A stretch of DNA of 64,000 nt from a virus, in IMG/VR virus record IMGVR_UViG_3300035701_000002, one strand, 5' to 3'. Below the pieces are notes generated by a model that searched no databases, was not told where the DNA came from, and saw only the letters and a program-made list of their open reading frames with translations. Of this stretch, positions 25,413 through 57,106 are shown piece after piece. The position numbers and the translations under genes are program-made. Position 1 is the first letter of the stretch; every line of letters starts with the position of its first letter.

Positions 25413-25498
25413 GGTCTCCGTAGAGGTATTCAAGTCCGGCTGGACCTTACCGGGCCTAAACATGACGAGGAAGACTCGGGGGCGGAAAGGACGCCCGC

Positions 25499-35853: not shown

Positions 35854-35882
35854 GACCCACACCTTTTGTGATACGGCATTCG

Positions 35883-36668
35883 ATGGTCCAAAATCTGTGC
35901 AAGATACACGGGGTAACGGCCTTCCGAGTTCGTCATCGCCTGAAGCGCGGGTCACGCAGTCTCGTAAAAGAGTGCTTGCTCTGTGAAGCGGAAAGGGCGA
36001 AGGCACACTACCAAGGCCATAAAGCGGAGCGGAGCCAAGACAACCGGCGACGCTATCAGGAAAACAGAGACGCTGTTCGTGCAAGAACGAAGACCTATGC
36101 GGCTAGAATTCGCTATGAGGCCCTTCAAAGATACTCAGATGTTGAACCCCGATGCGCACACTGCGGAGAAGACAAGGTCGAGTCCCTGGGCCTGGACCAT
36201 ATAGTCAACAACGGATCGGACCACAGACGCAGAGAGGGACTCTTCAGTGGTCAGTCGACATATCTATGGGCGCGAAGGAACGACTATCCAACAATATTCC
36301 AAGTGCTATGCCATAACTGCAACATTCGAAAACAACTGGATAGAATCACCTCGATTTCGCCAAGTGCTCAGTATAGAGCGAGGTTGAAAACAGAAGTGCT
36401 GAGTCACTACGCGAGTCCGATAAAGTGTGCGCTTTGTAAAGAAAACGATCTGTCCGTCATGACAATCGACCACGTCAACGGTGGCGGGAATATTCATCGG
36501 AAGACTGCCTGGGGCAACAAAAGCAATTTTTATCTATGGTTCAAGAGAAACGAATTCCCATCGGGTTTCCGTGTCCTTTGCTTCAACCACAATCTAGGTA
36601 TCAGGTGTAGCGGTATGCCTACCCTGTCCAGTCCACCCTTGGTAGACCCTCGGCCCCTCTGGTTTTGA
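35883..36668 (+). CDS. tandem-HNH endonuclease (low-GC island inserted between the two GT4 paralogs)
   Basis: Two modules: CAHCGEDKVESLGLDHIVNNG...VLCHNCN and CALCKENDLSVMTIDHVNGGG...VLCFNHN. About 50% GC. The listed start is GTG at 35868; the first ATG is at 35883. Confidence 0.75.
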   Translation: MVQNLCKIHGVTAFRVRHRLKRGSRSLVKECLLCEAERAKAHYQGHKAERSQDNRRRYQENRDAVRARTKTYAARIRYEALQRYSDVEPRCAHCGEDKVESLGLDHIVNNGSDHRRREGLFSGQSTYLWARRNDYPTIFQVLCHNCNIRKQLDRITSISPSAQYRARLKTEVLSHYASPIKCALCKENDLSVMTIDHVNGGGNIHRKTAWGNKSNFYLWFKRNEFPSGFRVLCFNHNLGIRCSGMPTLSSPPLVDPRPLWF

Positions 36669-39071: not shown

Positions 39072-40069
39072 TTCCTGAAGCTTTCTTTGAACCATCTAGC
39101 AGTCATGCGAATGCCGTCCACATATCCGACTTTCGGGTTCCAGTCCAGCATGGCCCTGGCCCTCGAGATGTCGGGGCACCTCTGCCTTGGATCGTCCTGC
39201 GGAAGAGGGCGGAACTCGACGGTCGCGGCCGACCTCGGAGAGTCGTACGGCCTGCCGGAGTCCAGGTCCAGGATGGCGGTCGCCACGTCCTCCGCCACGG
39301 AGAGGATCGACCTCTCGTCGGGATTTCCGACGTTGACGACCGGGATGGGGTGCGGTGAGAACGCCGCGCGGCGCTCGACGGTTATCTCGACCTCCATGAG
39401 CCTCAGGAGGGCCTCGACCGTGTCGGACACGAAGCAGAAGCTCCTGGTCTGACCGCCCGATCCGTAGACCGTCATGGGCTCACCGCGCATGGCCTGGAGC
39501 ATGAAGTTCGGGATGAGGCGTCCGTCCTCGAAGGCCATTCTCGGCCCGTACGTGTTGAAGAGGCGCGCGATGCGGACGTCGGTCCCGTACTGCTGGGCCC
39601 AGGACGTGGCGAGGCTCTCGCCGACCCTCTTTCCCTCGTCGTAGCAGGCGCGGATCCCGGTGGGGTTCACGTGGCCCCAGTATGTCTCCGGCTGCGGATG
39701 GACGGAAGGGTCGCCGTAGACTTCGGAGGTGGACGTGATGAGCAGGCGCGCACCAGTGTCCCTAGCGCACTCGAGGGCGTTCAGAGTGCCGATGGTCGCC
39801 GTCTTGATGGTCCTGACCGGGTTGCGCTGATAGTGGACCGGGCTTGCGGGGCAAGCCAGGTGGTAGATCCTGTCGCACTCGATGTGCCACGGATCGCACA
39901 CGTCGTGGCGCAGGAACTCGAACCTCGGGTTCCCGAGAAGGTGAAGGACGTTCGCCTTGCTCGACGTGAACAGGTTGTCCACGCACACGACGTCGTGGCC
40001 GAGCTCGACAAGGCTGTCGCAAAGGTGGGATCCGATGAACCCGGACCCTCCCGTAACTACGACCTTCAC
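39068..40069 (-). CDS. uxs: UDP-glucuronate decarboxylase (UDP-xylose synthase), SDR family
   Basis: VVVTGGSGFIGSHL ... NPRFEFLRHDV ... IYHLACPASPVHYQRNPVRTIKT...GTLN ... SEVYGDP..HPQPETYWG.VNP.G.R.CYDEGKR ... FNTYGPRM ... DDPRQRCPDIS. Near-diagnostic by eye for UXS. Confidence 0.85.
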   Translation of the reverse strand: MKVVVTGGSGFIGSHLCDSLVELGHDVVCVDNLFTSSKANVLHLLGNPRFEFLRHDVCDPWHIECDRIYHLACPASPVHYQRNPVRTIKTATIGTLNALECARDTGARLLITSTSEVYGDPSVHPQPETYWGHVNPTGIRACYDEGKRVGESLATSWAQQYGTDVRIARLFNTYGPRMAFEDGRLIPNFMLQAMRGEPMTVYGSGGQTRSFCFVSDTVEALLRLMEVEITVERRAAFSPHPIPVVNVGNPDERSILSVAEDVATAILDLDSGRPYDSPRSAATVEFRPLPQDDPRQRCPDISRARAMLDWNPKVGYVDGIRMTARWFKESFRK

Positions 40070-42453
40070 ATGGCCCCCTTATACGGTGGCATCACGTCGC
40101 GCTGGACGTCCTCCATCGTCTTCCTGAACATCGTGACCCACTCGTCCGCGAGAGAGTCCCATCCGAAGTTCTCGGTCGCGTACTTCTGAAGCTCAGACCG
40201 GTCGGAGTCGTCCGTGCGCTGCATGGCGGCAACGACCCCGTCGATGAACCGGTTCTGATAGTCCAGGGTCAGCCAGTCCCCGGGGACCATCGTCCCGCGC
40301 GGCCCGACGGTCTCGTTGAGGGCGGCTATCGGGGACGTGACCATCCGGAGCCCGGCGGCTTGGGCCTCCATGGCCGAGATGCAGCTCGTCTCCGTGAACC
40401 AAGTCGGGTAGGCCCAGACGCCGCTCTTCAGGTACTCGTCCGCGAGGACGTCCTGGGCAACGCGCCCGTGGAAGACGACGCCGGCGGTCTCGTAATCGTG
40501 GAGCATCTTCTTGAGGTTGTTGATGAGCCCCATCTGGGAGGCGTCAGCGCAGGCCTCCCACGTCTGGAATCCGTAGAAGATGTGGAGCTCGGCCCCCGGC
40601 ACCCTCTCCCTGACGCGGGGCCACACGCAGATGGCGACCTGCATCCCGCGGTCGGGGCTCGAGCTGTAGACGGCCCTCTTCGGGTCGCGCGGAGGGGACT
40701 TGACGAACCTTTCGAGATCTATGCCGTTCCGGGTCACGAGGACCTGGTCCGGATGAACGACCTGGTGGTGGTTCAGGAAATATCCGCGGTGCCACTGGCT
40801 GAGGGTCAAGAATTTGTCTATCCGGATGGCGCGAGCGTGGGTCAGCTCCCCGCCGCAGTGGACGTCGTGAACCCAGCAGAGCCTGGCCTTGGAGGACACG
40901 TTGTGGGAGTCGTCGACGGCGGACGGCCGACGGGAAGTGACGAGGACGTCGCAGTCCAGGTTGCCGTACTTACCGTGGTGGATGTATTCGACGCCCGAGA
41001 AGCTGCCCTCGATGCCAGGGCACTCGCCGAAGACCCGCACTCGGTGGCCCCTGCCGGCGAGCCTCTTGGACATCTCGATGACGGCGGTCTCGGACCCCCC
41101 GATCCCCTTCTTGGAGGCAGTCTCCGGATTCCAGGGCTCCACGGCGTTCCCGACATAGAAAACGATGTCCAGGACGTCCCCATGACCGTCGGGGCGCGAC
41201 CCGGACGGGGCCTGGAACCTGTTCTTCGAAACGACGGAGTCGACGTGCGCCCTGACGTCCGGAGACAGGTCCCCTGTGTCGACAAGGGCCGTGAGGGCCG
41301 ACGACAGCTTGTCCTTGGCCAGGTGCTTCTCGAACACCTTCTTGTTCACGAGGAGGTGCGGATCGTCGGGCTTCGCCCTCAGCCCTGTGTTGACGCTCTC
41401 TAGCGCCTCGGCGACGCGGCCCGTGTTGCTGAGGGCGACGTTGAGGAACTTGTGTACCTCGAGGTTCCTGTCGAACGGGTTGATGAAGAGGGATGTGTTC
41501 GTAGGGGGGAGCGAAAGGCCAAGGCGCGCGAAGTGGGCGCACCGCTCCCAGTTCCTGTACGTGTCCTTGCCCCTCTGGGCCAGAAAGTAGAAGCACTTGG
41601 CGAGGGTGAAGTAAGCCTCACCCCACTTCTCATGGATGATGGTGGCCCTGCTGGCCCACGGGATGGCGTCGTCGTAGGCCCCGCGGCCGATGTGATGGTC
41701 GGCGATCTTCAGGCAGGCGAGATACTTCTCATCGTCCCATCCGGAGCGGTCGACGTACTTGCTCAGGAACTTCACGGCATTGTCGAAGTCACCGTTGTTC
41801 CCGTACTCGAGACCGAGGTAGTACAGGTGCCGGGCGTCGGAGTCACCCTCATCCTCGTACTGCTCTTTGAGGATCCGGAGGTTCCGGCCGGGTTCGACCT
41901 TCTTGCGGGACAGGTCGCGACGGTGGACGATCTTGACCCTCTCGGTCCTCTGCCTGAGGTCTCCTGCGAGCGGGACGAGGACCTCATGGACCCTCCCGAC
42001 CCACCTGAAGCCGGCCTTCGGGGAGACGAGCCTCTCGCGGTCGTGGAGGAGGGTGACGTTCCCATGCTCGTCATGGGCATACTCGTACGGCATCATGACC
42101 ATGGAAGGTCCGCCGTTCCGGGCGCGATCGTACTCCTCCACGAGGGACGCCAAGTGCTCCGCACCGGCAACCTCGTCGTCCCCGTCGATCCACATGGTCC
42201 ATGGCTGCGTGGCGAGGCTGAAGCTCTTCTGCCGTGCGTCCGCGAACGACCTCATCAGGCCGCTAGGATGATTGCACCCCGTGTAGACCTCGAACTTGTC
42301 GGCGAAGCGGCGAGCGACGTCCTGAGAGGAGTCGGTTGATCCAGTGTCGACGACGACGATCTCGGCAACGTAGGGCCGGACGGAGCTCAGGCATTTTTCG
42401 AGCTGGGCGATCTCGTCGCGGACGATGAGGCAGACGGATATGGGCGCTGTCAC
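40066..42453 (-). CDS. multidomain glycosyltransferase: N-terminal GT2 - TPR-like repeats - C-terminal GT4
   Basis: GT2 region: SVCLIVRDE...VVDTGSTD...WIDGDD. TPR-like helical repeats lie in the middle. GT4 region: EX7E FTETSCISAMEAQAAG. ATGA overlap with uxs. Confidence 0.8.
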   Translation of the reverse strand: MTAPISVCLIVRDEIAQLEKCLSSVRPYVAEIVVVDTGSTDSSQDVARRFADKFEVYTGCNHPSGLMRSFADARQKSFSLATQPWTMWIDGDDEVAGAEHLASLVEEYDRARNGGPSMVMMPYEYAHDEHGNVTLLHDRERLVSPKAGFRWVGRVHEVLVPLAGDLRQRTERVKIVHRRDLSRKKVEPGRNLRILKEQYEDEGDSDARHLYYLGLEYGNNGDFDNAVKFLSKYVDRSGWDDEKYLACLKIADHHIGRGAYDDAIPWASRATIIHEKWGEAYFTLAKCFYFLAQRGKDTYRNWERCAHFARLGLSLPPTNTSLFINPFDRNLEVHKFLNVALSNTGRVAEALESVNTGLRAKPDDPHLLVNKKVFEKHLAKDKLSSALTALVDTGDLSPDVRAHVDSVVSKNRFQAPSGSRPDGHGDVLDIVFYVGNAVEPWNPETASKKGIGGSETAVIEMSKRLAGRGHRVRVFGECPGIEGSFSGVEYIHHGKYGNLDCDVLVTSRRPSAVDDSHNVSSKARLCWVHDVHCGGELTHARAIRIDKFLTLSQWHRGYFLNHHQVVHPDQVLVTRNGIDLERFVKSPPRDPKRAVYSSSPDRGMQVAICVWPRVRERVPGAELHIFYGFQTWEACADASQMGLINNLKKMLHDYETAGVVFHGRVAQDVLADEYLKSGVWAYPTWFTETSCISAMEAQAAGLRMVTSPIAALNETVGPRGTMVPGDWLTLDYQNRFIDGVVAAMQRTDDSDRSELQKYATENFGWDSLADEWVTMFRKTMEDVQRDVMPPYKGAM

Positions 42454-42489: not shown

Positions 42490-43404
42490 TCAGGCCATCA
42501 GCAGGTAGGAGGCATAAGCGTCGACGGACTGACCGCGGAAGCTCGCGTTGGCGTTCGGAGCGGCGGTGAACGCCGCCGAGATCGCCGCATGGGCGGTCTC
42601 CATCGCCGCCTTCGCGCCGGCCGCGCCGGTCCAGTACGACTGAGCGCCGAGGCCCTGACCGGTCTCCGATCCGCACCAGAGGCCGTAGTTCCTGCCCGAC
42701 TGGCTCGCATAGTCGAACCACTTCTGGAAGGTGGCGATCTGCTGGGCCGAGTTGTTGTAGTAGCATCCGACGGACACGAAGTCCGCGCAGTCCATCAGGT
42801 TCAGGCCTTCGAGCTGGGTCGGGCCTCCGCCGTAGGAGAAGCTCAGGGCGGCGGACGCGGGGTCGGCGAGCCACTGGCTGGTGAAGCAGCCGACGGGCAC
42901 GTTCAGGACCGCCCTGGCGGCCTTCATGAGGTCGCACAGGCCCTGGGGATCGGCGGCCGTATAGCCGGGGACGGTCCAGTACTCGACGTCGAGCATGAGG
43001 CCGTCGAAGGCCGCAGCGTCGGTCGTGGTGCTGGCGGCGTCCGCGAGGGCGTTGTACTGGGCGACGTGGCGGACGATGTTGTTCATCACCCACTGCTGGT
43101 TCTGGCCCCAGTCCGTGTTCCCGGCCAGGGCCATCACGCGAATCCCGGATGCGTGCGCGTAGTGGACGAACTTCGTGACCGCCTGGTAGTTGGCGGTCGA
43201 CCAGTTGCCGCCCCCGAGGCGCCCCCAGACGTCGAGGAACACGACGTTGACGCCGTTCGAGGAGCAGAAGCTGAGGAGGCTCTGGACCTTCGCGTCGGTC
43301 GCGAGCGGATCTCCGGCCGATCCGGCGGCTCCGCACCACACGAACATGGAGCGGTCGAGGTTGCTGTTCGGGGGGACAGGGATTGCTACGGCTGAAACGG
43401 TCAT
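42490..43404 (-). CDS. TIM-barrel glycoside hydrolase-like protein (GH18/GH114-like motif DGLMLDVEYW)
   Basis: 304-aa ORF with alternating beta-alpha pattern and a D-x-x-x-x-D-x-E motif. It is the first gene of the sugar operon. Confidence 0.45.
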   Translation of the reverse strand: MTVSAVAIPVPPNSNLDRSMFVWCGAAGSAGDPLATDAKVQSLLSFCSSNGVNVVFLDVWGRLGGGNWSTANYQAVTKFVHYAHASGIRVMALAGNTDWGQNQQWVMNNIVRHVAQYNALADAASTTTDAAAFDGLMLDVEYWTVPGYTAADPQGLCDLMKAARAVLNVPVGCFTSQWLADPASAALSFSYGGGPTQLEGLNLMDCADFVSVGCYYNNSAQQIATFQKWFDYASQSGRNYGLWCGSETGQGLGAQSYWTGAAGAKAAMETAHAAISAAFTAAPNANASFRGQSVDAYASYLLMA

Positions 43405-43453
43405 TTGATGGGATCTCCTCTACAAGTTTCATGGAAGCGGCCCATGAAAGTTC

Positions 43454-44422
43454 TCAGAACTGGACGTATTCGAACCCGCCGACGGCGGTGGACGCGGTCG
43501 CCGCCACGGGGCGCTCGACGATCCAGATCAGATCCGGGCCCGGGACCTGGAGCCAGACCTGGAACGAGTGGTCGAGCTGGCCGGCCGCGACGTGGACGAC
43601 GGTCTGCCCGATCTGGAGCTGCGGGAGGTTCGCATTCGACGGATCGCCCGACCGGTTCAGGTTCGCCTGACCGGAGACGACGGTGGCCCCGGCGGAGAAG
43701 GAAATGATGCAGCAGGTGAGGCCCGACGGCACATAGTGGTGAGCCCAGAACGTCTGGTTGTCGCTCGCGGCGATGGAGCCCCAGACGGACCCGCCGGCGG
43801 CGGTCGCGGTCCAGACCTGGATCGTCCCGACGTTCCCGCCGACCGATCCGACGGACGCGACCACGATGCTCTCTATGTATGCGATGTCCGTGGCCACGGT
43901 GTTGACGGCCGCCGTGCCGTTCATGGTGACTGTCTCGGACTTGAGGACGAAGGCGGCGGTCAGGTAGTTGATCGTGACGGTCCGGGCCCCCGTGCCGGCG
44001 GACGTATCGTTCGCGCTCGTCGAGTTGACACTGCGCTGGGCGTTCGCGCCCTGAGGCGCGTAAGCCGTCGCTCGTATAGCCTTTCCTGACGTGGCGGACG
44101 TGCCGACGTAGCCCTGGACTCTCCCGTAGGAGCTCACGGACGTGCTCGGGACTCCGACGGAGAACTGCTGGAACGCGTCTGCGCCGCCGAGCGGTACGCC
44201 CTGATGGGCGGCGACCACGGCGTTCAGAGTGGTCTGGTCGCCGCCGGATAGGACGTCCTTGAACAGGATGGCGCAGTTGTTCGAGGCGGTGCTGGTGCTG
44301 ATGGAGTCGAGGGCCGTGACGATCGACGACGCACGGATCTCCACCGTGAGCCGGTCCGTCGCCACCTTCCCGTTCGGAAAGGCGGTGGATATTGTGTAGT
44401 TATAGGTCGTGGGGGTCGGCAT
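43454..44422 (-). CDS. fibre-associated structural protein (Thr/Ser/Ala-rich beta protein)
   Basis: 322-aa ORF directly downstream of the collagen-like fibre genes. Confidence 0.5.
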   Translation of the reverse strand: MPTPTTYNYTISTAFPNGKVATDRLTVEIRASSIVTALDSISTSTASNNCAILFKDVLSGGDQTTLNAVVAAHQGVPLGGADAFQQFSVGVPSTSVSSYGRVQGYVGTSATSGKAIRATAYAPQGANAQRSVNSTSANDTSAGTGARTVTINYLTAAFVLKSETVTMNGTAAVNTVATDIAYIESIVVASVGSVGGNVGTIQVWTATAAGGSVWGSIAASDNQTFWAHHYVPSGLTCCIISFSAGATVVSGQANLNRSGDPSNANLPQLQIGQTVVHVAAGQLDHSFQVWLQVPGPDLIWIVERPVAATASTAVGGFEYVQF

Positions 44423-44459: not shown

Positions 44460-47400
44460 TCAGCCGATCTTCTGGATGATCATGTTCCGGTTCGTCATAG
44501 TCCCCGTACCCGTGGAGACGCGCCACCAGATCTCGATGGTCTGGCCGGCCCCGACGCCCGTTATGAACTCCTGGAGCACGCCAGCCATACCAGCGCCGCC
44601 GGCCGTCACGCGGATGGCGCGCTCGGAGCCGGCCATCTGGGCGCCATTCACATAGACCGAGAACGTCGCGGAGAGGGAGGCGGAAGATCCTGACCAACTA
44701 ATGTTGGCCGAGACTAGGTAGTTTCCGGCGCCGGGAGTCGTCGTCAGGCTGTCCGCGAGGACGTCCGTCGTGGACGTGGTCGTGACGGTACTGGTTCCCG
44801 AGATCTCCGTGATGGCCAGGCCAGGCCCGGTGGCCCCCGTCGGTCCCTGCGGGCCAGTATAGCCTGTCGCGCCCTGGGGTCCCGTGGGCCCGGTGACTCC
44901 GGCAGGGCCGGCCGGACCAACGCCGCCGACCGTGCTGATAGAAAACTGGGCACTGCGAACCTTCACGTCACCGGTGGTGAAGGTGGCACCCCGCATGCGG
45001 ACGTCCAGGACATCCCCGGGCACGAGGCTCTTGATGCTGTTGAAGCCAACGTTGGACGTGCCTGAAGCCCCGGTACCGCCTCTTATCGGGACGGACGAAG
45101 ATGCGTCGTCCTGTCGAATACCGTTGAGGAACAAGGCGGAGACTGCCACATAGTTGCCTGTGGCCTGACCGAAAATCGCAGCGTCGAACTGAACATCGTA
45201 TACGCCGGGCTGTTGGATCGTGTAGCCGGTAGCCCCGGCAACGACGTTCGCGGTAGCTCCCGTGGCCGCCCATCCGGTGAACTTCGCGAACGTTCCGGTA
45301 GGCATCGTAGGCCAGCCGGTTAGAGTGGGAACGCTCACCACGCCCCAAGCCCCGGTCGGAGCTCCGGGGCCGGTCGGGCCAGTTGCTCCGGTCGCGCCCT
45401 GCGGGCCGGTGGCGCCCTGAGGTCCAGTCGGGCCCTGCGGTCCCGTAGCTCCAGTCGGGCCCCCGGGACCGGTCGGGCCGGGTGAGCCCTGCGGGCCGGT
45501 GAATCCCTGCGGGCCCGTGCCGCCACGAGGGCCCGTAGGGCCTGTCGCTCCAGTCGGGGCCCCGGGACCAGTCGGGCCGGGCGATCCTTGCGGGCCCGTG
45601 GCGCCCTGAGGTCCGGTAGGACCCTGCGGACCCGCAGGTCCTGTGGAGCCCTGCGGACCCGCAGGTCCGGTAGAACCCTGCGGACCAGTCGGACCGGTGG
45701 CTCCGGTGATGCCGGGCGATCCCTGAGGGCCGGTCGCTCCGATGGAGCCCGTAAGGCCTTGAGGGCCCGTCGGTCCGGTGGCGCCGACAGGGCCGGTAGC
45801 CCCTTGAGGCCCGGTCGAACCCTGCAGTCCTGTAACGCCGGGAGATCCCTGAAGGCCTGCAGTACCGGGTGATCCTTGAGGACCAGTAGAGCCGGTGACG
45901 CCAGGTGAACCCTGAGGTCCCGTAGCTCCCTGAGGGCCTGCGGACCCGGTGGACCCTGCGCCCGTAGCACCCTGGGGGCCGGTCGCACCCGTGACCCCGT
46001 CAGATCCGGTGGCGCCCTGAGAGCCGGTCGCACCCTGCGGTCCGGTGGCTCCCTGAGGTCCCGTTACTCCGGGTGACCCTTGAGGACCTGAAGGTCCGGT
46101 AAAGCCTGTGGCGCCGGGTGAACCCTGAGGGCCGGTCGGGCCGGGAGATCCTTGGGCGCCTTGCTGGCCCGTGGCGCCCTGCTGGCCCGTGGCGCCCTGC
46201 GGGCCCGTAGATCCGGTAAATCCAGGGAAGCCCTGGGGGCCGGTTGCACCCTGAGGACCGGTGGAACCTGTGATGCCCGGAGATCCTTGCGGTCCAATAG
46301 ACCCAGGAGATCCTTGAGGCCCGGTTGAGCCCGTGGCCCCCTGCGGTCCGGTGAGTCCCGGAGATCCTTGAGGCCCTGTGGGTCCCGGAGATCCTTGAGG
46401 CCCGGTACTACCACGGGGCCCGGTCGGTCCTGTAACTCCAGTGACACCAGGAGATCCCTGCGGGCCGGTCGATCCGGTCGCTCCAACAGACCCGGCGGGA
46501 CCGGTCGATCCCTGAGGGCCTGTAGACCCGGCGGGACCGGTCGATCCCTGAGGGCCTGTAACGCCAGGCGATCCTTGAAGGCCTGGAGAACCTTGTGCTC
46601 CCGTGGAGCCCGTGACTCCAGGCGATCCCTGCGGGCCGATCGAACCCGTGACTCCAGGCGAGCCTTGTGGCCCCGTGACTCCAGGCGAGCCTTGTGGCCC
46701 CGTGGCACTCTGCGGACCAGTCGCACCCTGCGGCCCGGTCGCCCCCGTGACGCCGGGCGACCCCTGCGGGCCTGTCGCACCCTGAGGGCCTGTCGCCCCG
46801 CGCGGGCCCGTAGGCCCGGTAACACCCTGTGGCCCAGTAGACCCCGTTGCGCCGCGCGGCCCGGTGGCGCCGAATCCGGGGACGGGAGGGGTCGTGACGT
46901 TAGTCAGGAGCCGAACACGGTCGAGGTAGAACCCGGACAGTCCGCCAGACTTGATGACGTAGAACCTGAGGCGAGTAATGCTAGACTGGTTCGTCAGGTT
47001 GAACGCGGTGAGCGGGAAAGACAGGACCTGGTACGAGGTCGTGTTGTTCTTGTCGAACCCGCCCGACCCGTCCGCTATGTACTTCCACTGGCCGTTGAGC
47101 ACATTGTCCGGCGACTCGAAGCAGAAGTAGAGGTACGATCCCGACCAGTCCGCAGACTTGCACTTGATCGCGAACTCGAGCTTCGTGTACGTGGAGCCGT
47201 TGAAGGTCCCGGACGGGTCGAAAAAGATCTGGTCGCCCGTGACGGGGCTCGTCGCGCTAACGTCTTTCGTGCCGGTGAACGGGCTGGTCGTGTCGGCCAG
47301 AGCTACCCGCGCAGCCGCGTTCGTCGTAGCGTTCCACTCCCCGCCCGCGATGCCGACGTTCTCGTCATAGACGAGAGTCCCCGAGACGCCGGACGGGGTC

Positions 47401-48140
47401 GTCGCGCCCGCCCCGACGGTGACGAAGCTGACCTCGACCTGGTCGATTCCGATCTCGGGCTTGACCGGAGAGGCAGACGGCGTACCTGTGACCACGCTCA
47501 CAGTCCCGTTGGTGTCCGCAACGATTACGTCTATCCTGTCGAACGTCGGGTCCGCGACAGATAGGGTGACCTGGGTCGGCTGGGAGGTGTAGTAGGTGCC
47601 GCCTATGACGTACTTGAGAAGAGTGACGTTGTACGTGAGGCCGGTGTCCCACGAGGCTCCGCCGTCGTAGAGGCCGTCCTGGAGCGGAGGGCCGACGATC
47701 GTGATGTCGGCCTGAGTCGGGTTGGCGGGGTTGGCGGTTGCACGGACGATAGGACCGACGAAGTTGAGGGCGGACTTTCCGGGCCCGGTTATCCCGGTCC
47801 CCTCGTCCTTGACCGTGATACCGCTGTTGGTCGGCCCGGTGGCGCCAGTCGGGCCCACCGTAGTGAGAACCCCGGTGTCCGTCATGTAGACGTTCCACGG
47901 GGTTCCGCTCGGGGACAGGATGGTGAGTGGAGGGGCAGAGCCGGTCGGGTAGGATCCGACGTACGGGACGAACCCCTTCTGGGCCATCGCGATGTCGAGA
48001 TCCGGCTTCAGGGCGTCGTTCGACAGCGTGATGTCGACGTAGACGACCGTAGCCGAAGCGCCGATGACCAACGACGGGTCGATGACACCCTTGAGGAATG
48101 CCAGGTCTATCGAGTTGGACTGATAGCGGAAGGTGCTCAT
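44460..48140 (-). CDS. collagen-like fibre protein (1226 aa): ~420-aa N-terminal domain, ~600 aa of G-X-Y repeats, two BclA/C1q-like C-terminal domains
   Basis: Uninterrupted [12 protein letters not shown] triplets. The C-terminal beta-rich segments resemble the Bacillus BclA C-terminal TNF/C1q-like domain. ATGA overlap with the 2989-aa gene. Confidence 0.85.
45080..46865. repeat. collagen G-X-Y triplet-coding repeat region of the 1226-aa gene (approximate bounds)
   Basis: Periodic GGN-CCN/ACN-... 9-nt periodicity over about 1.8 kb. Confidence 0.7.
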
Positions 48141-51100
48141 ACGAACTCGACCGTCACTGTGATCTGGCTGACAGCGCCGACGTTGGCAGATTTCGTGAGC
48201 TTAATAACGATCTGGTCCCCCGCGCTGACGGAAACCGAGTCCGTCGTGTTCTGTGCAGTGGTTGCGGTCGGGAGGATCCCGACGGTGAGGGCCGAGTCAA
48301 CACCGGCCACGACGACCGTGTATGTGATCGTAGCGGTTCCCGTACCCGGGTTGTTCTGCATCACATAGAGGTTTCGAAGCGTCCCCGCTCGAGTCACTCT
48401 GATCGCATACTGATTGGACGTGGATGCGAGAGAACCCTCGTATCCGGGGTACATATACCTGGTCGTGGTCGTGGTGCCGGAGTTGTCAGCGCCCCAGACG
48501 AGAGGGTATCCGTTCGAAGGGCCGACAGGGCCGGTCGGGCCAGTGACTCCCTGAACTCCGGTGACACCCTGAGGACCGGTAGCTCCGGTGACTCCTTGAG
48601 GACCGGTGACGCCAGTAATGCCCGGAGATCCTTGAGGACCGGTGACTCCGACAGGGCCGGTCGCACCAGTGACTCCAGGAGAGCCCTGAGGTCCAGTCGC
48701 GCCCGTGACACCATCAGATCCGGTGGCACCCTGTGGTCCGATCGGACCAGTAGCACCAGGAGAACCCTGCGGCCCCGTAGCTCCGATCGGACCTGTCGCT
48801 CCTGTGACTCCGGGCGAACCCTGAGGTCCGGTCGGGCCAGTGACTCCATTCGCGCCGGTTGCACCCTGCGCGCCGGTTGCACCCTGCGGACCGTCCGGGC
48901 CAGTAGCGCCCTGCGGTCCGGTCGCGCCCTGCGGTCCAGTAACACCTGTGGAGCCGGGCGAGCCCTGAGGACCGGTGGCGCCAGGAGAGCCCTGAGGACC
49001 AGTGGCGCCAGGAGAGCCCTGAGGACCAGTGGCGCCCTGCGGGCCAGTGGCGCCTGTCGATCCAACAGGACCCGTGTGCCCGGTGGAGCCTTGCGATCCG
49101 GTCGGTCCTTCCGGGCCTGTCGATCCGGTTATTCCCTGAACTCCGGTGGCGCCAGCAGGGCCGGTAGATCCTGTCACCCCCGCAGGACCTGTCGCTCCCG
49201 TAACTCCATCGACTCCGGTCGCGCCCTGAGGACCAGTGGCTCCCTGCGGACCTGTGGCTCCCTGAGGCCCAGTGGCGCCGTCGGCTCCGGTGGCTCCCTG
49301 TGGACCGGTCGGGCCTGTGACGCCCGGTGAACCAGTAGCACCCGTAACACCAGGAGAACCGGTAGCTCCCTGGGGTCCGGTTACACCCGTCGCGCCCTGC
49401 GGTCCGGTAGGACCTTGAGCGCCAGTGGAACCTTGAGGACCGGTAGATCCGGTGATTCCAGGTGAACCCTGCGGCCCGGTGATTCCAGGTGAACCTTGTG
49501 GTCCGGTAGCCCCCTGCGGGCCTGTGACGCCCGGTGACCCCTGCGGGCCTGTGGCTCCCTGCGGTCCTGTAGGACCGGTTGCGCCCGTCGCGCCCGGCGG
49601 CCCTCCGAACGGGCCTGTGGCTCCCTGCGGACCGGTAGCGCCTGTGACGCCGAAGCCGCCGATCGTGTGAAGGTTGAAGCACCCGACCTGGACGTTGAAG
49701 GTGGACGAGTTAAAGTTTGAACTGACCCTGACGTCGAGGACGTCATTGGCGTTGAGCTGAACGAGGTCTCGCACGGCCACGCTTGCCGTGCCGTTCGACG
49801 TGAAGTCGGCGATGGCCACGCCGTCGTCGTGGAGAACACCGTTGATGAAAAACGCGATCGTGTACGTCTTGTTGTTGTCGCCCTGGAAGGAGAGCGTGAA
49901 GCCGACGATGTAGATGCCGCCGGAGCTGATGGTAATGTCGTTCGTGGAGAGACTCGGGGTCGTCCCGAAGTACTCACCGACGGACGTCCACTGGGTGACC
50001 TTGTAGTACGTCCCGGCGGTCGTGAGGGTGCCGGTTCCAGGAGTTTCGCAGTCGAGCTCGCCGTATACGGCGGGGGACCCGACGGGGCCCGTGACGCCCT
50101 GCACTCCGGTTGCGCCCTGAGGGCCGGTAGGTCCGGTCGCGCCGGGTGATCCTTGCGGGCCTGTCGCGCCCTGAGGGCCCGTCGGTCCGGTGACGCCCGG
50201 AGATCCCTGAGGACCGGTCGCACCCGTCGCACCCGTCGCACCCGTGACTCCAGGGGATCCCTGGGGACCTGTAGCGCCTGTGACTCCGTCCGCCCCAGTA
50301 GCACCTTGCGGACCGGTAGCTCCAGTAGCTCCCGGAGAGCCTTGAGGACCCGTCGGACCAGTAGAACCGGGCGATCCCTGAGGCCCTGTGGCTCCAGTGA
50401 CACCGTCGGATCCAGTCGCACCCTGCGGTCCGGTGGAACCCTGGGGGCCCGTGGCTCCCGTGGCTCCGGGAGATCCCTGCGGGCCGGTGGCACCCTGAGA
50501 TCCAGTGGCACCCTGCGGACCTGTCGCGCCCGTGACTCCGTCCGCTCCGGTGGCACCCTGCGGTCCCGTGGGGCCAGTCGCGCCGGTTGCTCCGGGCGAT
50601 CCCTGCGGGCCGGTAACACCGGTGACACCAGGGGACCCTTGGGGGCCAGTCGAGCCGGTGACTCCATCCGCGCCCGTCGCACCCTGCGGGCCAGTGGCAC
50701 CGGTTTCGCCTCTGGGTCCGGTCGCACCCGTGGCGCCCGGGGAACCCTGCGGCCCGGTCGGGCCTGTGGCACCATCGGATCCGGTCGCGCCCTGGGGCCC
50801 AGTTGCACCCGTGACTCCGGGAGACCCCTGGGGGCCAGTCGAGCCGGTGGCGCCGTCGGCGCCGGTGGCACCTTGAAGGCCGGTAGGTCCGGTGGCGCCC
50901 TGAGGGCCGGTCGCCCCGGTGACTCCGGGCGACCCCTGCGGTCCAGTGGAGCCCTGCGGTCCAGTCGAACCCGTAGCTCCGTAGGGGCCGGTTGCACCCT
51001 GAGGACCGGTCGGGCCGGTGGCACCAATCGGGCCGGTCGCCCCGGTAACCCCGTCCGCACCGGTGGCGCCCTGTGGACCGGTGGCGCCAGGTGAACCCTG

Positions 51101-54100
51101 CGGGCCCGTAGCGCCGGTGGCACCCTGGGGCCCGGTCGGACCTATGGCGCCAGTGACACCATCCGCGCCGGTCGCACCTTGGGGTCCAGTCGGGCCCGTG
51201 ACTCCAGGAGATCCCTGCGGGCCCGTAGCCCCGGTGACTCCGGGCGATCCCTGCGGTCCTGTCGCGCCCGTGACACCGTCAGCTCCGGTTGCGCCCTGCG
51301 GTCCCGTAGCCCCGGTGACTCCGGGCGATCCCTGGAGTCCCGTGGCTCCCTGCGGGCCCGTGGGTCCAGTTGCACCGGTCGGGCCCTGAGAACCAGTGGC
51401 ACCCTGCGGGCCCGTAGGTCCGGTGGCGCCCTGAGGTCCGGTCTCACCTTGGGGCCCGGTGGAGCCAGTGACTCCATTCGCACCTGTTGGGCCTTGCGGC
51501 CCTGTGGCGCCAGTAACACCGTCAGATCCGGTCGCTCCCTGGGGTCCGGTGGCACCCGTGACGCCGTCCGCACCCGCGGCACCAGTTGCGCCTTGGGGGC
51601 CGGTCGCGCCCGTGACTCCGGGTGAACCCTGGGGGCCGGTGGCCCCCAGAGGGCCGGTGGCCCCCAGAGGGCCCGTCGGTCCGGCCGCACCCGTGACACC
51701 GTCCTGCCCCGTCGCACCTTGAGGTCCGGTCGGGCCAGTGTCTCCTCGAGGACCCGTGGATCCGGTGACTCCGCCCGCCCCTGTGGCACCCTGAGGCCCT
51801 GTGACACCCGTGACTCCGGGAGATCCCTGAGGCCCAGTCGACCCCTCTGGACCAGTCGCTCCCTGCGGTCCAGTCGGACCCGTGACGCCGTCAGCTCCGG
51901 TGGCTCCAGTGACACCCGGAGACCCCTGAGGTCCGGTAGGACCTGTAACTCCAGGCAATCCCGTTGCGCCCTGCTGTCCCGTGGCACCCTGAGGCCCGGT
52001 GGCACCCATGACCCCGTCAGGTCCGGTGGCACCCTGAGGACCGGTAGGACCGGTAGGACCGGTGGCCCCGGTTACACCATCGACGCCGGTGACGCCACGG
52101 GGTCCAGTTTCACCCTGAGGGCCGGTGGGACCTGTGGCGCCCGTGACGCCGGGCGCTCCCTGCGGGCCCGTCGATCCGGTAACCCCGTCGGCACCGGTGG
52201 CACCCTGAGGACCGGTGGCACCCGTGACACCATCAGATCCAGTCGGACCCTGCGGTCCCGTTGCGCCACGGGGACCCGTTGCGCCTTGGGGACCGGTAGA
52301 ACCCGTGACTCCGGGGGATCCCTGAGGACCGGTGGTCCCCTGAGGACCAGTCGGACCCATAACTCCATCAGCACCAGTTGCACCCTGCGGTCCCGTTGGA
52401 CCGGTGGCGCCTGTTACTCCTTCAGCACCCGTGGCTCCCTGCGGGCCCGTGGCACCGGTTACCCCGTCCGGACCTGTAACTCCAGGAGATCCTTGGGGGC
52501 CGGTCGCTCCCGTGGCGCCGGGCGATCCCTGAGGACCCGTGGCGCCAGTGACGCCGTCGGATCCGGTGGCACCTCGGGGCCCGGTCGGTCCGGTGGCGCC
52601 GGTAATACCGTCCGCTCCAGTTGCACCTTGAGGACCAGTGACACCAGTGACGCCGTCTGCGCCGGTTGCACCCTGCGGGCCGGTGGCACCTTGGGATCCA
52701 GTAGGGCCAGTTGCGCCAGTAACGCCGTCTGCGCCGGTTGCACCCCGTGGGCCCGTCGGACCGGTGGCGCCCGTGACGCCGGGTGAACCCTGCGGCCCGG
52801 TCGATCCGGTGATACCGTCAGCACCAGTTGAACCCTGAGGACCAGTTGAACCCTGAGGTCCGGTCGGCCCCGTGGCACCGGTGACGCCGTCCGCTCCCGT
52901 CGCACCCTGCGGTCCTGTCGCTCCAGTGACTCCGGGCGATCCCTGCGGTCCTGTGGCCCCGTCCGCACCGGTGGCGCCTTGAGGACCGGTGGCACCCGTG
53001 ACGCCGCCGACGCCAGTCGCCCCCTGGGGACCGGTCTGGCCTGTGTCTCCTCGAGGCCCTGTCGCGCCGGTGACACCGTCCGCGCCGGTGGCGCCCTGGG
53101 GGCCGGTGGCGCCGGTCACGCCGTCAGGACCAGTAACTCCAGGCGAACCCTGAGGACCGGTAGCACCCGTGACACCGGGAGAACCTTGAGGGCCCGTAGT
53201 GCCATCCGATCCCGTGACACCCTGGGAGCCAGTAGGCCCGACAGCGCCTGTAGGTCCTTGAGCTCCAGTCGCGCCCTGCGGGCCGGTTGCACCGGTGACT
53301 CCGTCAGGTCCGGTGACCCCGGGGGAACCCTGAGGTCCGGTGGCTCCCGTGGCGCCAGGAGATCCGGTTGCGCCCTGAGGGCCCGTAGCCCCGGTGACTC
53401 CGGGCGATCCCTGCGGTCCTGTCGCTCCGTCAGAACCGGTCGAACCATTCTGTCCGGTCGCTCCCTGCGGACCGGTCGCCCCCTGGGGCCCAGTAGAACC
53501 TGTAGCGCCGTCGATGCCAGTCGCGCCCTGCGGGCCGGTGGAACCCTGGGGGCCGGTAGGTCCGGCCGCACCCGTAACACCGCGAGGGCCTGTCTGACCG
53601 GTTGCTCCGTCCGATCCGGTGGCGCCCTGCGGTCCGGTCGGACCCGGTGAGCCCTGCGGGCCCGTGGCGCCCTGAGGACCTGTAGCTCCGGTTTCACCCC
53701 GAGGGCCCGTCGCGCCGGTGACGCCGTCCGCACCGGTCGCTCCCTGCGAGCCAGTGGCGCCGGGCGATCCCGCAGGACCTGTCGCTCCCGTAACTCCATC
53801 GACTCCGGTCGCGCCCTGAGGACCAGTGGCTCCCGTGGCACCGCCGGGGCCGGTCGATCCCTGCGGACCGGTGGTTCCAGTCGCGCCATCCTGACCGGTG
53901 GCGCCCTGAGGCCCGGTCGCGCCCTGGAGGCCGGTGGCGCCCTGAGGTCCAGTAGGACCCGTCGCTCCAGTGACTCCGTCCGCGCCCGTTGCGCCTTGAG
54001 GACCCGTAGGTCCAGTTGATCCGTCTGCGCCGGTCGCCCCTTGGGGGCCGGTGGGGCCGGCGGTTCCGGCGGTTCCAGTAGACCCGGCAGGTCCGGTGGC

Positions 54101-57100
54101 CCCGATGACTCCAGGGGAGCCCTGAGGCCCGGTCGCGCCCGTGACACCGTCCGCACCGGTCGCTCCCTGCGGACCTGTCGCGCCAGTGACTCCGGGCGAT
54201 CCCTGCGGCCCGGTGGCGCCATGCGGTCCGGTAGGTCCTGTGACTCCGTCCGCGCCAGTGGACCCCTGAGGGCCCGTGACTCCGTCCGCGCCCGTCGACC
54301 CCTGAGGTCCGGTGGGGCCAGTAGCACCGGTGGCTCCATCTATGCCAGTGGCTCCCTGGGGTCCGGTCGCACCCTGCGGACCGGTGGGGCCGGCGCTGCC
54401 GGTGACGCCATCCGCGCCCGTGGCCCCCTGAGGACCTGTCGGACCCATGACTCCGGGCGATCCCTGAGGACCGGTCGCGCCCGTGACGCCATCAGCGCCG
54501 GTGGCACCCCGGGGGCCCGTCGGGCCGGTCATACCGTCCGCTCCGGTCGCTCCCTGCGGACCGGTCGATCCCTGAGGTCCGGTGGGTCCCGTGACGCCAT
54601 CCGATCCAGTTGCACCCTGCGGACCTGTGGCACCCGTTACCCCGGGAGATCCTTGTGGGCCCGTGGGCCCGTTCGCACCCGTGGGGCCCTGAGGACCGGT
54701 CGCTCCGGTGGCGCCGTCAGGACCGGTAGCGCCCGTTACGCCGGGAGATCCCTGAGGGCCCGTCGTTCCGTCCGCCCCGGTCGCTCCCTGAGGTCCGGTG
54801 GCACCCTGCGGGCCAGTGGCTCCCTGCGGGCCAGTCGGGCCCGTGACACCATCGATACCGGTCGCTCCCCGGGGGCCGGTGGAACCCTGCGGTCCGGTGG
54901 AACCGTCCTGACCAGTGGCTCCCTGAGGGCCGGTCGCGCCGGTAAGTCCATCGGATCCGGTGGCGCCCTGCGGTCCAGTCGGGCCCGGGGATCCTTGAGG
55001 GCCAGTTACACCCTGAGGACCCGTAGCTCCGGTAGCTCCGTCTATACCGGTTGCGCCCTGCGGTCCGGTGGAGCCGGGAGAACCCTGCGGCCCAGTCACT
55101 CCAGCAGGACCGATAGGTCCGGTCGATCCGGTCGCGCCCTGCGGGCCGGTGGAACCCTGCGGGCCGGTCGCGCCCGTAACGCCGTCCGGGCCTGTCGGAC
55201 CGGTCGCACCAGTCGGGCCTTGAGGACCAGTCGGGCCCGGGGATCCCTGGGGACCCGTCGACCCCTGAGGTCCGGTGGGGCCGGCAGCGCCGGTGGGGCC
55301 GGCAGCGCCGGTCTGGCCGGTGGAGCCGCCGATTCCGGGAGATCCCTGTACGCCCTGAGTTCCTGGTACGCCGGTGGCGCCGCGAACGCCCTGAGGGCCG
55401 GTAGGCCCGATCGGTCCTGTGGCGCCCTGAGGTCCTGTGGAGCCGGTGACTCCGTCGACACCAGTGGCGCCACGAGTACCGGTCGCGCCCTGAGGTCCCG
55501 TAGCACCCTGAGGCCCGGTGGGACCTGTCGAGCCCTGAGGCCCGGTGGGACCTGTCGAGCCCTGCGGTCCGGTCGCGCCCTGCGGTCCCGTAGCACCCTG
55601 GGAACCTGTAGGTCCGACCGCACCCGTCGGCCCCTGAGGGCCGGTGGAGCCCTGAGGGCCGGTCGGTCCCTGAGAACCCGTCTGCCCCTGGGAGCCGGTC
55701 GGACCCTGGAGACCAGTAGACCCCTGGAGACCAGTCGCCCCCTGCGGGCCGGTGACACCCTGCGGTCCGGTGGCCCCGGTTTCGCCCCGAGGCCCGGTCG
55801 GACCTGTGGCGCCTTGCGGCCCGGTGGAGCCAGGAGAGCCCTGAGGGCCGGTCGGGCCCTGAGGGCCGGTAGGACCCTGAGCGCCGGTGGAGCCAGGAGA
55901 GCCTTGAACACCCTGCTGGCCAGTCTGGCCTTGGGAGCCAGTGGGCCCCTGAGATCCTGTTACGCCCTGGGGGCCGGTAGCTCCCTGAAGCCCGGTGGAA
56001 CCCTGAGGGCCGGTGGACCCCTGCGGCCCGGTCGGTCCGGTGGCGCCGGTGGACCCCTGCGGGCCGGTGGCGCCCTGGGGGCCCGTCGCACCCTGAGGGC
56101 CTGTGGCTCCCGTAAGTCCAGGAGGACCCTGGACACCCGTGGCGCCCTGCGGGCCGGGCGAACCCTGCGGGCCCGTCGCTCCCTGCGGTCCGGTGGCCCC
56201 CGTAAGCCCGGGAGGGCCTATCGGACCCGTAGGTCCAGGAGATCCGACCGGACCGATGGGACCTTGGATGCCCGTAGCACCCCTGAGCCCAGGGGATCCC
56301 TGGGGACCCTGAGGGCCTCCTGGGCCTGTCGGGCCGGTGACGCCCTGCGGGCCTGTCGGGCCGGTAGAGCCCTGAAGGCCGGTGGCACCCTGAGGGCCGG
56401 TTTGACCCTGCGGCCCGGTCTGACCCTGGGGACCGGTAGGTCCCTGGACACCGGTGGCGCCCTGCGGGCCGGTCTGTCCCTGAGGGCCTGTCTGTCCTTG
56501 GGGTCCAGTAGGGCCGACAGAGCCGGTGGGGCCCTGGACTCCGGTAGAGCCCTGAGGGCCGGTAGAGCCCTGAGGACCGGTCGGACCGGTGACTCCGGGA
56601 GATCCCTGAGGACCGTCGAGGCCGGTCGATCCCTGCGGGCCAGTCGATCCCTGCGGTCCAGTCGATCCCTGCGGGCCAGTAGGGCCGTCGAGCCCGGTCG
56701 ATCCCTGAATCCCGGTGGAACCCTGAGGGCCGGTAGTTCCGATCGATCCGGTCTGTCCTTGAGGCCCGGTCGGGCCGTCGATCCCAGTGGCTCCCTGCAG
56801 GCCTGTGGCTCCCTGCGGACCTGTAGATCCCTGGGGGCCGGTCGGGCCGGGCGAACCGGCGGGACCTGGAGAGCCGGTGGAGCCTGAGCCGGTCGCCCCC
56901 TGCGGGCCGGTGACACCCTGCGGACCCGTGGTGCCCTGCGGCCCCGTGGGCCCAGGGGGGCCCGCGGGGCCTGTGGGGCACGGCGATCCCTGCGGGCCCG
57001 CAGGGCCCGTCGCTCCGGCAGGACCGGTAGGCCCGGTGGCCCCGGTCGCTCCGGCAGGTCCGGTGTTTCCGACACCGGATATTGAGCGAGGATTTTCGAG

Positions 57101-57106
57101 TCCCAT
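48137..57106 (-). CDS. giant collagen-like fibre protein (2989 aa) with internal and C-terminal BclA/C1q-like globular domains
   Basis: ATG at 57106 verified. The protein is collagenous from residue ~15, with about 2500 residues of G-X-Y enriched in Thr/Gln/Pro/Ser/Ala. An internal globular domain begins [28 protein letters not shown]. The C-terminal globular domain runs [14 protein letters not shown]...VTVEFV. Confidence 0.85.
48620..57060. repeat. ~8.4 kb of collagen G-X-Y triplet-coding repeats (approximate bounds; interrupted once by a globular-domain coding segment)
   Basis: Direct inspection shows ggNccNgtN-type periodicity throughout. Long plus-strand and other-frame ORFs here are shadows. 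Confidence 0.75.

Follow-up and report, generated by a model that had tools for sequence, protein, structure and literature searches.

Why would a bacteriophage encode collagen-like chains of up to 2989 amino acids (aa), and how would such chains fold, be stabilized, and be put to use? These questions are raised by a 64,000-nucleotide stretch of DNA from the IMG/VR virus record IMGVR_UViG_3300035701_000002 (here called the window), in which two adjoining minus-strand genes encode collagen-like fiber proteins: P2 (2989 aa, 260 kDa, isoelectric point 4.05; positions 48137 to 57106) and P1 (1226 aa, 117 kDa; positions 44460 to 48140). Both were delimited by open reading frame (ORF) and translation, and the stop of P2 overlaps the start of P1 in the motif ATGA. 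An initial annotation, made from the sequence alone, had proposed two giant Thr-rich collagen-like genes at this place; its coordinates were exact, and searches with the Pfam Collagen model (PF01391; cut-off, 27.2 bits) bear out the assignment, with scores of 240 bits (E = 1e-72) for P1 and 1235 bits (E = 0) for P2. With Gly at every third residue and scores above threshold, both proteins belong to the collagen triple-helix repeat family. We consider it likely that P1 and P2 are trimeric collagen-like structural fibers of an uncultured jumbo myophage and that they are probably O-glycosylated on Thr.

Two chains of collagen segments and knobs

By script count, P2 holds 903 G-X-Y triplets (91% of its residues) and P1 holds 177 (43%), and the longest unbroken run, at residues 78 to 2345 of P2, extends over 756 triplets. 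Together the genes contain 1080 triplets, or 9.7 kb, in agreement with the earlier estimate of roughly 10 kb, and the leading triplets, GST among them, are those named earlier as well. In the two proteins Pro occupies 36 to 41% of the X positions, and Thr and Gln occupy 46 to 53% and 25 to 28% of the Y positions, respectively. P2 has 529 Thr and 4 Lys, P1 has 18 Lys, and neither contains a single KGE or KGD triplet. The combination of Pro at X and Thr at Y is that of the Thr-rich collagens of bacteria and viruses (PMC11923368).

In both chains, each collagen segment directly precedes a knob on its C-terminal side. P2 begins with a 12-aa peptide (57071 to 57106; all features of the two chains are on the minus strand) and has no N-terminal globular domain. 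Triplet counts place its first collagen region, which holds the 756-triplet run, at residues 13 to 2345 (50072 to 57070); an internal knob follows at residues 2346 to 2482 (49661 to 50071), then a second collagen region of 127 triplets at residues 2483 to 2864 (48515 to 49660) and a C-terminal knob, P2_C, at residues 2865 to 2989 (48140 to 48514). P1 is globular over residues 1 to 423, with an N-terminal module of ~95 aa (47856 to 48140) and a domain of ~300 aa at residues 104 to 423 (46872 to 47831). It continues with collagen at residues 424 to 926 (165 triplets in 4 runs; 45363 to 46871), an internal knob at residues 927 to 1071 (44928 to 45362), a short collagen linker of 12 triplets at residues 1072 to 1107 (44820 to 44927), and a C-terminal knob, P1_C, at residues 1108 to 1226 (44463 to 44819). 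These positions depart slightly from the sketch in the initial annotation, which overlooked the N-terminal 423 residues of P1. A collagen helix rises 0.286 nm per residue; at that rise, and if fully extended, the collagen of P2 would span ~0.78 µm, close to the ~0.7 µm estimated before, and that of P1 would span ~0.15 µm.

What are the knobs?

The internal knobs of P1 and P2 are homologous (30% identity, E = 8e-12), P1_C is weakly related to both in sequence comparison, and a profile comparison of the internal knobs with the P1_C family gave an hhalign probability of 90% (E = 1.6e-6). In predicted models, the fold is that of a TNF/C1q-like jelly-roll for both C-terminal knobs: P1_C, modeled with AlphaFold from a 34-sequence alignment (predicted local distance difference test [pLDDT], 96.4; predicted template-modeling score [pTM], 0.87), takes the fold of TNF, C1q, and the BclA C-terminal domain, and P2_C (pLDDT, 94.8) is a TNF-like jelly-roll. 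Judging from their sequence and profile links, the two internal knobs would share this fold, that of P2 probably as a TNF-like jelly-roll.

The earlier description of the knobs as BclA/C1q-like therefore stands for the fold of P1_C and P2_C but not for family membership. At the level of sequence, no domain of P1 or P2 is a member of BclA_C, C1q, or TNF: the best score against Pfam BclA_C (PF18573), that of the P1 internal knob, is 14.7 bits (E = 0.029), below the cut-off of 38; the other three knobs lack a match to this model at E ≤ 10; and none of five domains searched matched the Pfam C1q or TNF models at E ≤ 10. The P2 internal knob has sub-threshold PDB profile matches to TNFSF9, and PDB sequence searches with this knob, with the profiles A3, A4, and A8, and with the neighboring 304-aa protein returned nothing significant.

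Structurally, P1_C comes closest to a lectin and also matches the CBD domain of a cyanophage tail fiber. P2_C matches TNF ligands and the tail fibers of cyanophages and an Agrobacterium phage about as well as it matches cement proteins. In a viral structure library, the best matches of P2_C are collagen-repeat proteins of Klosneuvirus, Edafosvirus, Solumvirus, Fadolivirus, and uncultured Caudovirales, at 28 to 34% identity, template-modeling scores of 0.73 to 0.87, and a Foldseek E of about 1e-10 (3e-10). This modeled likeness to giant-virus collagens hints that collagen-fiber modules have been exchanged between phages or bacteria and the Nucleocytoviricota.

Domains of the P1_C type occur in 31 proteins, none of which has a Pfam domain, and at 19 IMG/VR loci, several of them on contigs of 120 to 450 kb. 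The domain lies nearly always at the extreme C terminus, in proteins of 158 to 1372 aa, and other parts of these proteins match tail-protein, minor-tail, and tail-fiber PHROGs. In three protein families (L008-L011, L015, and L018/L019) a single chain carries three tandem copies, apparent single-chain pseudo-trimers at the N terminus of proteins of up to 2244 aa; such an arrangement would be expected of a domain that works as a trimer. The P2_C family, with 13 proteins, has no profile relation to P1_C. Small proteins that end in either type of tip have similar N-terminal adaptor motifs, as read from their sequences. A tblastn search of P1_C and P2_C against 50,697 GenBank phage records gave no match, IMG/VR pattern scans found no relatives of the internal knobs, and the knob families of P1 and P2 appear in none of 129 long collagen ORFs sampled from IMG/VR; the family link is therefore carried by L021, L030, L151, P0003, P0005, and P0047.

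What of the N-terminal half of P1? Residues 1 to 95 are conserved in P0047 and in the P1-like protein of a diverged relative (L030), where collagen follows directly, and by this conservation the 95-aa module is likely the attachment end. The ~300-aa domain falls, by homologue search, into a large uncharacterized phage fiber family: residues ~150 to 420 retrieve 2634 representative clusters at E ≤ 1e-3, the family occurs in fiber-like phage proteins alongside tail-fiber modules, and in one protein (P0056) the domain is joined to a P1_C-type tip without collagen. The domain has no Pfam or PDB sequence match; with the N-terminal domain, IMG/VR pattern scans found no relatives, tblastn found no match in the GenBank phage collection, and PHROGs gave weak "virion structural" matches. 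Since the N-terminal domain and the P1_C-type tip recur in other phage fiber-like proteins, we read P1 as a mosaic of common phage fiber modules with collagen spacers between them.

Is the repeat tract real?

Are the giant ORFs instead artifacts of assembly and annotation, that is, collapsed or expanded repeats, or GC-rich noncoding repeats that happen to stay open? The initial annotation had itself named an assembly artifact as what would overturn it, and there are grounds for suspicion. Public gene callers did not predict P1 or P2, and other frames of high-GC DNA produce long spurious ORFs, such as one of 948 aa on the plus strand. Moreover, of eight independent contigs retrieved by way of a miscalled 105-aa C-terminal piece of P2 (P0034), six (L023 and L025-L029) break off within P2, beginning inside its collagen.

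Short-read assemblies thus break in the P2 collagen, yet the full-length versions agree. One of the eight contigs (L024) is 100% identical to the window over 10.8 kb, and another, from a different sample (L022), holds an intact P2 of 3058 aa that differs from the 2989-aa version by in-frame indels of 9 nt and 198 nt and by one synonymous substitution, so that two samples yield a full P2 ORF. Every indel among the P2 versions is a multiple of 9 nt, and all differences among the length variants of P1 (1040, 1187, 1220, 1226, and 1247 aa) are whole triplets. The DNA repeat is degenerate, with copies 60 to 80% identical (Tandem Repeats Finder), and the longest exact repeat in the 12.6 kb is 66 nt. 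A diverged relative (L030) also retains a giant collagen ORF. Because the collagen frame encodes, in addition, noncollagen domains that have homologues and confident predicted folds (pLDDT ~95), an artifact is very unlikely, and we give that explanation hardly any credence.

The public gene calls miss P1 and P2 in every assembly examined (L022-L030). What the public records hold are 105-aa and 74-aa C-terminal pieces (P0034, P0035, and P0037-P0040), tiny antisense ORFs, and ORFs in wrong frames, one of which, in L030, is called as a 547-aa Pro/Arg/Ala-rich "protein." Gene callers skip giant collagen ORFs, and such proteins are therefore under-represented in protein databases.

The collagen genes also stand apart in codon use. 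Their third-position GC is 0.62, versus 0.82 to 0.96 in neighboring genes, and GGA and GGT together make up 55% of their Gly codons, versus 17% elsewhere. It is this synonymous scrambling that keeps the DNA copies of the collagen repeat dissimilar; it may reflect selection or a foreign origin.

A fiber block in a phage structural region

To what kind of virus do P1 and P2 belong? The window has a GC content of ~65%, with nearly all genes on the minus strand. A 1698-aa protein (15545 to 20641, minus strand) matches tail sheaths, best those of LR745208.1, a 485-kb uncultured huge phage, and of Tunturiibacter phage Tunturi_5, a 309-kb myovirus (PMC11924767); a virion protein, a tail-terminator-like protein, a minor tail protein, and a head-tail connector are syntenic with the same two phages. 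Because of the sheath match and this synteny, the window is read as the late structural region of a jumbo myophage. Two other origins were considered and rejected in view of the tail sheath, the connector genes, and the phage synteny, namely, a haloarchaeal one, prompted by a match to the Volactin family and the 65% GC, and a eukaryotic giant virus.

The collagen block is located within the structural module and immediately precedes the head-tail connector gene; genes of unassigned function lie upstream of it, and the connector, minor tail, terminator, and sheath genes follow in a run. In order of transcription, it comprises genes for a 131-aa protein, a 426-aa protein, P2, P1, a 322-aa protein, a 304-aa protein, a 795-aa fusion of glycosyltransferase (GT) family GT2, TPR repeats, and GT4/GT1 (GT2-TPR-GT4; 40066 to 42453, minus strand), and a short-chain dehydrogenase/reductase (SDR) epimerase/dehydratase; there follow an S-adenosylmethionine (SAM) methyltransferase, two GT4/GT1 enzymes, a B12-binding radical SAM enzyme, and a UDP-glucose 6-dehydrogenase (SDR gene to dehydrogenase, 31716 to 40069, minus strand). 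The intergenic gaps from the 131-aa gene to the SDR gene are -4 to 49 nt. Signal peptides and membrane segments are lacking in all 13 proteins of the block, which makes the idea, raised earlier, of fibrils on the infected cell an unlikely one.

Is the pairing of fibers and sugar enzymes found elsewhere? The relative L030 (66.5% GC) has a P2_C-type tip 54% identical to that of the window. Its collagen ORF of at least 2583 aa (809 triplets) contains an internal noncollagen domain, and it also has a 749-aa collagen with a P2_C-type tip and a 1012-aa P1-like gene; next to these lie a GT2-TPR-GT4 gene, an epimerase, glycosyltransferases, and a methyltransferase. In L151 (IMGVR_UViG_3300031772_000410), the head-tail connector is 82%, a glycosyltransferase 72%, and the minor tail protein 61% identical to the counterparts in the window. 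On this contig, which opens within collagen, a P1_C-type tip protein is followed by a short region resembling the 322-aa protein (47.7% over 65 aa), then by the GT fusion, a second GT, and the connector gene. Since both relatives repeat the arrangement of the window, the association of collagen fibers with the GT2-TPR-GT4 enzyme is kept across three diverged lineages, beside neck genes. The GC content of L151, 44% against 65% in the window, is a very large shift between closely related phages.

What might stabilize the helix?

Salt-bridge clamps between Lys and Glu or Asp have been proposed as a general collagen stabilizer (PMC11923368), and they are missing here. No prolyl hydroxylase was seen near P1 and P2, no lysyl hydroxylase was seen in the window, and Pfam scans of the window genes tested found no 2-oxoglutarate oxygenase or PLOD-like domain. 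Given almost no Lys, no KGE or KGD, no prolyl hydroxylase gene nearby, and Thr at about half of the Y positions, the chains themselves suggest that P1 and P2 are probably O-glycosylated on Thr. Because Y is Thr-rich and the salt-bridge clamps are missing, the adjacent soluble glycosyltransferases are plausible enzymes for collagen Thr; among them, the 795-aa fusion, a candidate protein glycosyltransferase from its Pfam domains, weakly resembles the SunS peptide-glycosyltransferase family.

There are precedents for such a role of sugar. BclA is a glycosylated collagen-like protein (PMC8968730). In the cuticle collagen of Riftia pachyptila, an animal extracellular protein that, like P2, is unusually long and to which no evolutionary relation is implied, Thr at Y replaces hydroxyproline, and the Thr sugar stabilizes the helix (Mann 1996 and Bann 2000, as cited in PMC11923368). 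The same account has (Gly-Pro-Thr)10 forming a triple helix only with galactosylated Thr (Bann et al. 2000, via PMC11923368). The initial annotation had pointed to the Thr triplets as O-glycosylation sites by analogy with BclA and Mimivirus; the idea gains support from the adjacent glycosylation cluster, but the Mimivirus analogy is imprecise. Mimivirus collagen is reportedly glycosylated on hydroxylysine, and a system of that type, with Lys in the repeats and a lysyl hydroxylase/glycosyltransferase gene, was not found here, P2 having its 4 Lys and P1 its 18.

A further enzyme of the sugar cluster, the B12-binding radical SAM protein (33194 to 34798, minus strand), has weak similarity to C- and P-methyltransferases, including the methyl-coenzyme M reductase glutamine C-methyltransferase. 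It may methylate a sugar or, conceivably, the Gln-rich collagen itself.

A proposed mechanism

Collagens nucleate at the C terminus and then zip toward the N terminus (PMC11923368). Because of this polarity, and because a knob lies C-terminal to each collagen segment, the knobs are best read as nodes of trimerization and registration. We posit that the TNF/C1q-type jelly-roll after each segment would trimerize three chains and set their register and that the triple helix would then close in the C-to-N direction, the way BclA, C1q, and collagens VIII and X do. Thr O-glycosylation in the cytoplasm would stabilize the helix and would be supplied by the adjacent phage cluster, through GT2-TPR-GT4 and the two further glycosyltransferases; the UDP-glucose dehydrogenase and the SDR enzyme would furnish an acidic or pentose sugar, which the methyltransferases would decorate. 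We predict that the fibers would attach to the virion by the N-terminal end, that is, by the 95-aa module of P1 or the 12-aa peptide of P2, and that the C-terminal knobs would be the distal tips. These tips would likely bind glycans, a reasonable guess since P1_C matches a lectin and the CBD domain of a cyanophage tail fiber. The result would be flexible filaments of ~0.15 and up to ~0.8 µm that widen the capture radius of the particle when it first meets host cells or host polysaccharide and whose length would vary in the population by gain or loss of whole triplets. Attachment may be at the baseplate, the neck, or the capsid, and P2 may point in either direction.

Several points weigh against this proposal. 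The association of P1 and P2 with the virion is drawn from gene position and tip-domain homology, and the PHROG tail-fiber matches of P1 (E down to 1e-139) traverse the collagen and mostly reflect its composition. The 50 kb of LR745208.1 that is syntenic with the window lacks the collagen and sugar block, which marks the block as accessory and means that relatives give no clue to its attachment site. The NCBIfam equivalog scores of the sugar-nucleotide enzymes all fall below cut-off, so that no specific product is assignable, and the substrates of the glycosyltransferases could instead be host glycans or other virion proteins. Finally, a 0.8-µm fiber could be coiled or bundled and not extended.

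A more far-reaching version of the proposal can also be stated, as a conjecture that we think improbable in its entirety. A jumbo phage would build sub-micrometer glycosylated collagen filaments (~0.15 and ~0.8 µm), several particle lengths long, whose helix would not form until enzymes of the phage had O-glycosylated Thr in the cytoplasm; the radical SAM and SAM enzymes might also methylate the sugars or the Gln-rich chain. TNF-like knobs would nucleate the helix segment by segment, filament length would be tuned by triplet gain and loss, and the collagen-plus-knob module would be common to giant eukaryotic viruses, implying exchange between phages and Nucleocytoviricota.

Alternative readings

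Do the sugar genes act on the fibers at all? P1 and P2 could be virion fibers whose triple helix is stable from Pro and Thr alone, with the sugar genes glycosylating other virion proteins (capsid, tail tube) or remodeling host surface polysaccharide. Virion glycosylation has been described in published work on mycobacteriophages, where the targets are said to be capsid and tail-tube proteins. L151, in addition, retains glycosyltransferases without the UDP-glucose dehydrogenase and the radical SAM enzyme, and glycosyltransferases are common phage accessory genes (PMC11924767). We nonetheless find this reading doubtful, given that collagen and GT2-TPR-GT4 remain linked in three lineages as far apart as 65%, 66.5%, and 44% GC and that the TPR domain suggests a protein substrate. 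P2, with 529 Thr, 4 Lys, and 0 salt-bridge triplets, would also have few other stabilizers, and (Gly-Pro-Thr)10 without glycan does not fold, as reported in PMC11923368.

Where on the particle, and indeed whether on the particle, the fibers sit is a separate matter. They might be neck whiskers or capsid ("hairy head") fibers rather than receptor-binding tail fibers, in which case the cement-like jelly-roll at the C terminus of P2 might hold the capsid and leave the collagen end free. The head-tail connector gene comes immediately after the block, much as neck genes 13 and 14 of phage T4 come right after its whisker gene wac. An N-terminal domain is lacking in P2, capsid or tail hairs have been described in jumbo phages (e.g., PTm1 and Y3; PMC13282480), and SPP1 gp12 is a collagen-like capsid binder (PMC7602432). 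Gene order is, however, weak evidence in a mosaic accessory block, and P1_C-type tips are borne by proteins with tail-fiber and minor-tail PHROG modules. P2_C fits TNF ligands and the cyanophage and Agrobacterium-phage tail fibers about as well as it fits cement proteins, and the small homologues of both tip types have the C-terminal tip behind similar N-terminal adaptors, the usual distal position. A whisker or capsid location is, on balance, unlikely. Might P1 and P2 instead be no part of the virion, forming a matrix or aggregate made in or released from the infected cell that, for example, shields cells or traps competitors? The block is accessory, and collagen-like proteins of bacteria often serve in adhesion and in forming biofilms; yet none of the 13 block proteins is equipped for export by a signal peptide or membrane segment, the genes lie within the late structural region, and the homologues of the tip domains are phage fiber proteins, all of which leaves such a matrix a very slim prospect.

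How new is the design?

The reading of P1 and P2 as glycosylated virion fibers can be set beside several known systems. In BclA and the other Bcl exosporium proteins of the Bacillus cereus group (also F-BclA and ExsFA), a short N-terminal anchor has a possible parallel in P2, and filament length follows triplet number, as it would in P1 and P2. BclA is made in the cytoplasm and glycosylated, as P1 and P2 probably are. By inspection, the N termini of P1 and P2 carry no exosporium-targeting motif of the kind described in the literature, the context here being a tailed phage. The Bcl proteins differ in belonging to a spore and not a phage, in lacking the several knobs per chain seen here, and in having collagen regions of 27 to 1158 residues (PMC8968730), against 2709 in P2. 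T4 fibritin (wac) is trimeric, as P1 and P2 would be, folds from a small C-terminal trimerization domain, and is encoded just upstream of neck genes, but in place of collagen and a jelly-roll it has a foldon and a coiled-coil shaft ~50 nm long, and there is no homology. The collagens of giant eukaryotic viruses (Klosneuvirus, Edafosvirus, Solumvirus, Fadolivirus, and the Mimivirus lineage) have the P2_C-type terminal domain in common with this phage; these viruses too are large and have their own glycosylation genes, whereas this phage is tailed and infects prokaryotes.

Phage collagen-like tail fibers and spikes (PHROG 6320, 5073, 819, and 1806 "collagen like minor tail"; the PRD1 spike P5; EPclA of an E. 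coli prophage; the tail fibers of cyanophages A-1(L) and A4) are encoded in the structural region, as here, and are trimeric, with a collagen-like shaft and/or a TNF-like distal knob, as we read P1 and P2. The shafts of characterized fibers, examples being PRD1 P5 and the Escherichia coli prophage collagens (PMC3368898), are tens to a few hundred residues long, against up to 756 unbroken triplets here, and unlike them, P1 and P2 bear two knobs on each chain and come with a sugar gene cluster of their own. The overall plan is not new, collagen-like phage fibers being catalogued in many PHROG families. Viral collagens are known to be enriched in Thr-rich triplets, and as many as 2000 triplets are reported for prokaryotic collagens (PMC11923368). 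Our IMG/VR scan for 65 or more consecutive triplets found at least 120 stretches; among the matches listed are an ORF of 3275 aa with 908 triplets and an ORF of at least 2800 aa with 663, and the longest unbroken run among them is 329 triplets, against 756 in P2. Long phage collagens are common, and P1 and P2 are thus an extreme case of a known design. What is distinctive here is the length of the unbroken run, the knob after every segment, the conserved sugar cluster, the domain common to giant-virus collagens, and the failure of gene callers to detect the genes. Collagen goes unmentioned in a 2026 review of jumbo phage biology (PMC13282480).

Neighboring genes

Two small genes precede P2 (57111 to 58790, minus strand; 3 nt apart and 4 nt before P2). 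Their products, of 131 and 426 aa, have in common a repeated beta-sandwich-like module, and the 426-aa protein, whose gene is conserved in L022 and L024, also has a Cys/Pro-rich linker. Neither has a homologue in PHROGs, Pfam, or NCBIfam, and the 426-aa protein has no tblastn match in the phage collection; they may be adaptors or chaperones for the fibers. Downstream of P1 lie the genes for the 322-aa protein (phrog_8198, function unassigned) and the 304-aa protein (together 42490 to 44422, minus strand), which are conserved in L023, L025, and L026. The 304-aa protein (42490 to 43404, minus strand), between the fiber genes and the glycosyltransferase, has weak GH18-like TIM-barrel similarity (E = 6e-4, below cut-off). 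A megablast search of 12 kb against GenBank phages gave no match, and neither did tblastn with 1001 aa of the collagen, owing to the low-complexity filter.

Farther along, an ORF flanking the sugar cluster (31224 to 31868, plus strand) has weak similarity to an ATP-dependent DNA ligase domain. Between the minor-tail and terminator/sheath genes is a Volactin-family actin homologue (24408 to 25463, minus strand; Pfam PF25216, E = 2.9e-69), with counterparts in LR745208.1 (55% identity), LR756511.1 (29%), and L151 (67%); an actin-like gene inside a phage tail module is unexpected. The structural module also contains two GIY-YIG homing-endonuclease genes (14573 to 15496 and 26770 to 27657, minus strand), one with a NUMOD3 motif; two sites in L151 are each matched by both proteins, with a different one the better match at each. 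At 1698 aa, the sheath protein is very large for its kind; among the matches listed, its last ~350 to 390 residues alone align to actinobacteriophage sheaths, and the remainder probably forms extra domains on the tail surface.

Outlook

If real and extended, these fibers would be among the longest appendages of any tailed phage. There is also a practical blind spot, in that standard gene callers found neither giant ORF in any of the public assemblies examined. A system of prokaryotic type that brings its own stabilizing enzymes could be of use for recombinant collagen materials.

The locus also offers a testable hypothesis, that of glycosylation-dependent folding. Provided that the fibers are real and extended, P1 and P2 would give a simple model for the folding of very long hydroxyproline-free collagens, with a knob after every segment and with Thr glycosylation in place of the Lys-Glu/Asp salt bridges that have been proposed as a general mechanism (PMC11923368), and likewise for the question why large viruses carry their own glycosylation machinery.

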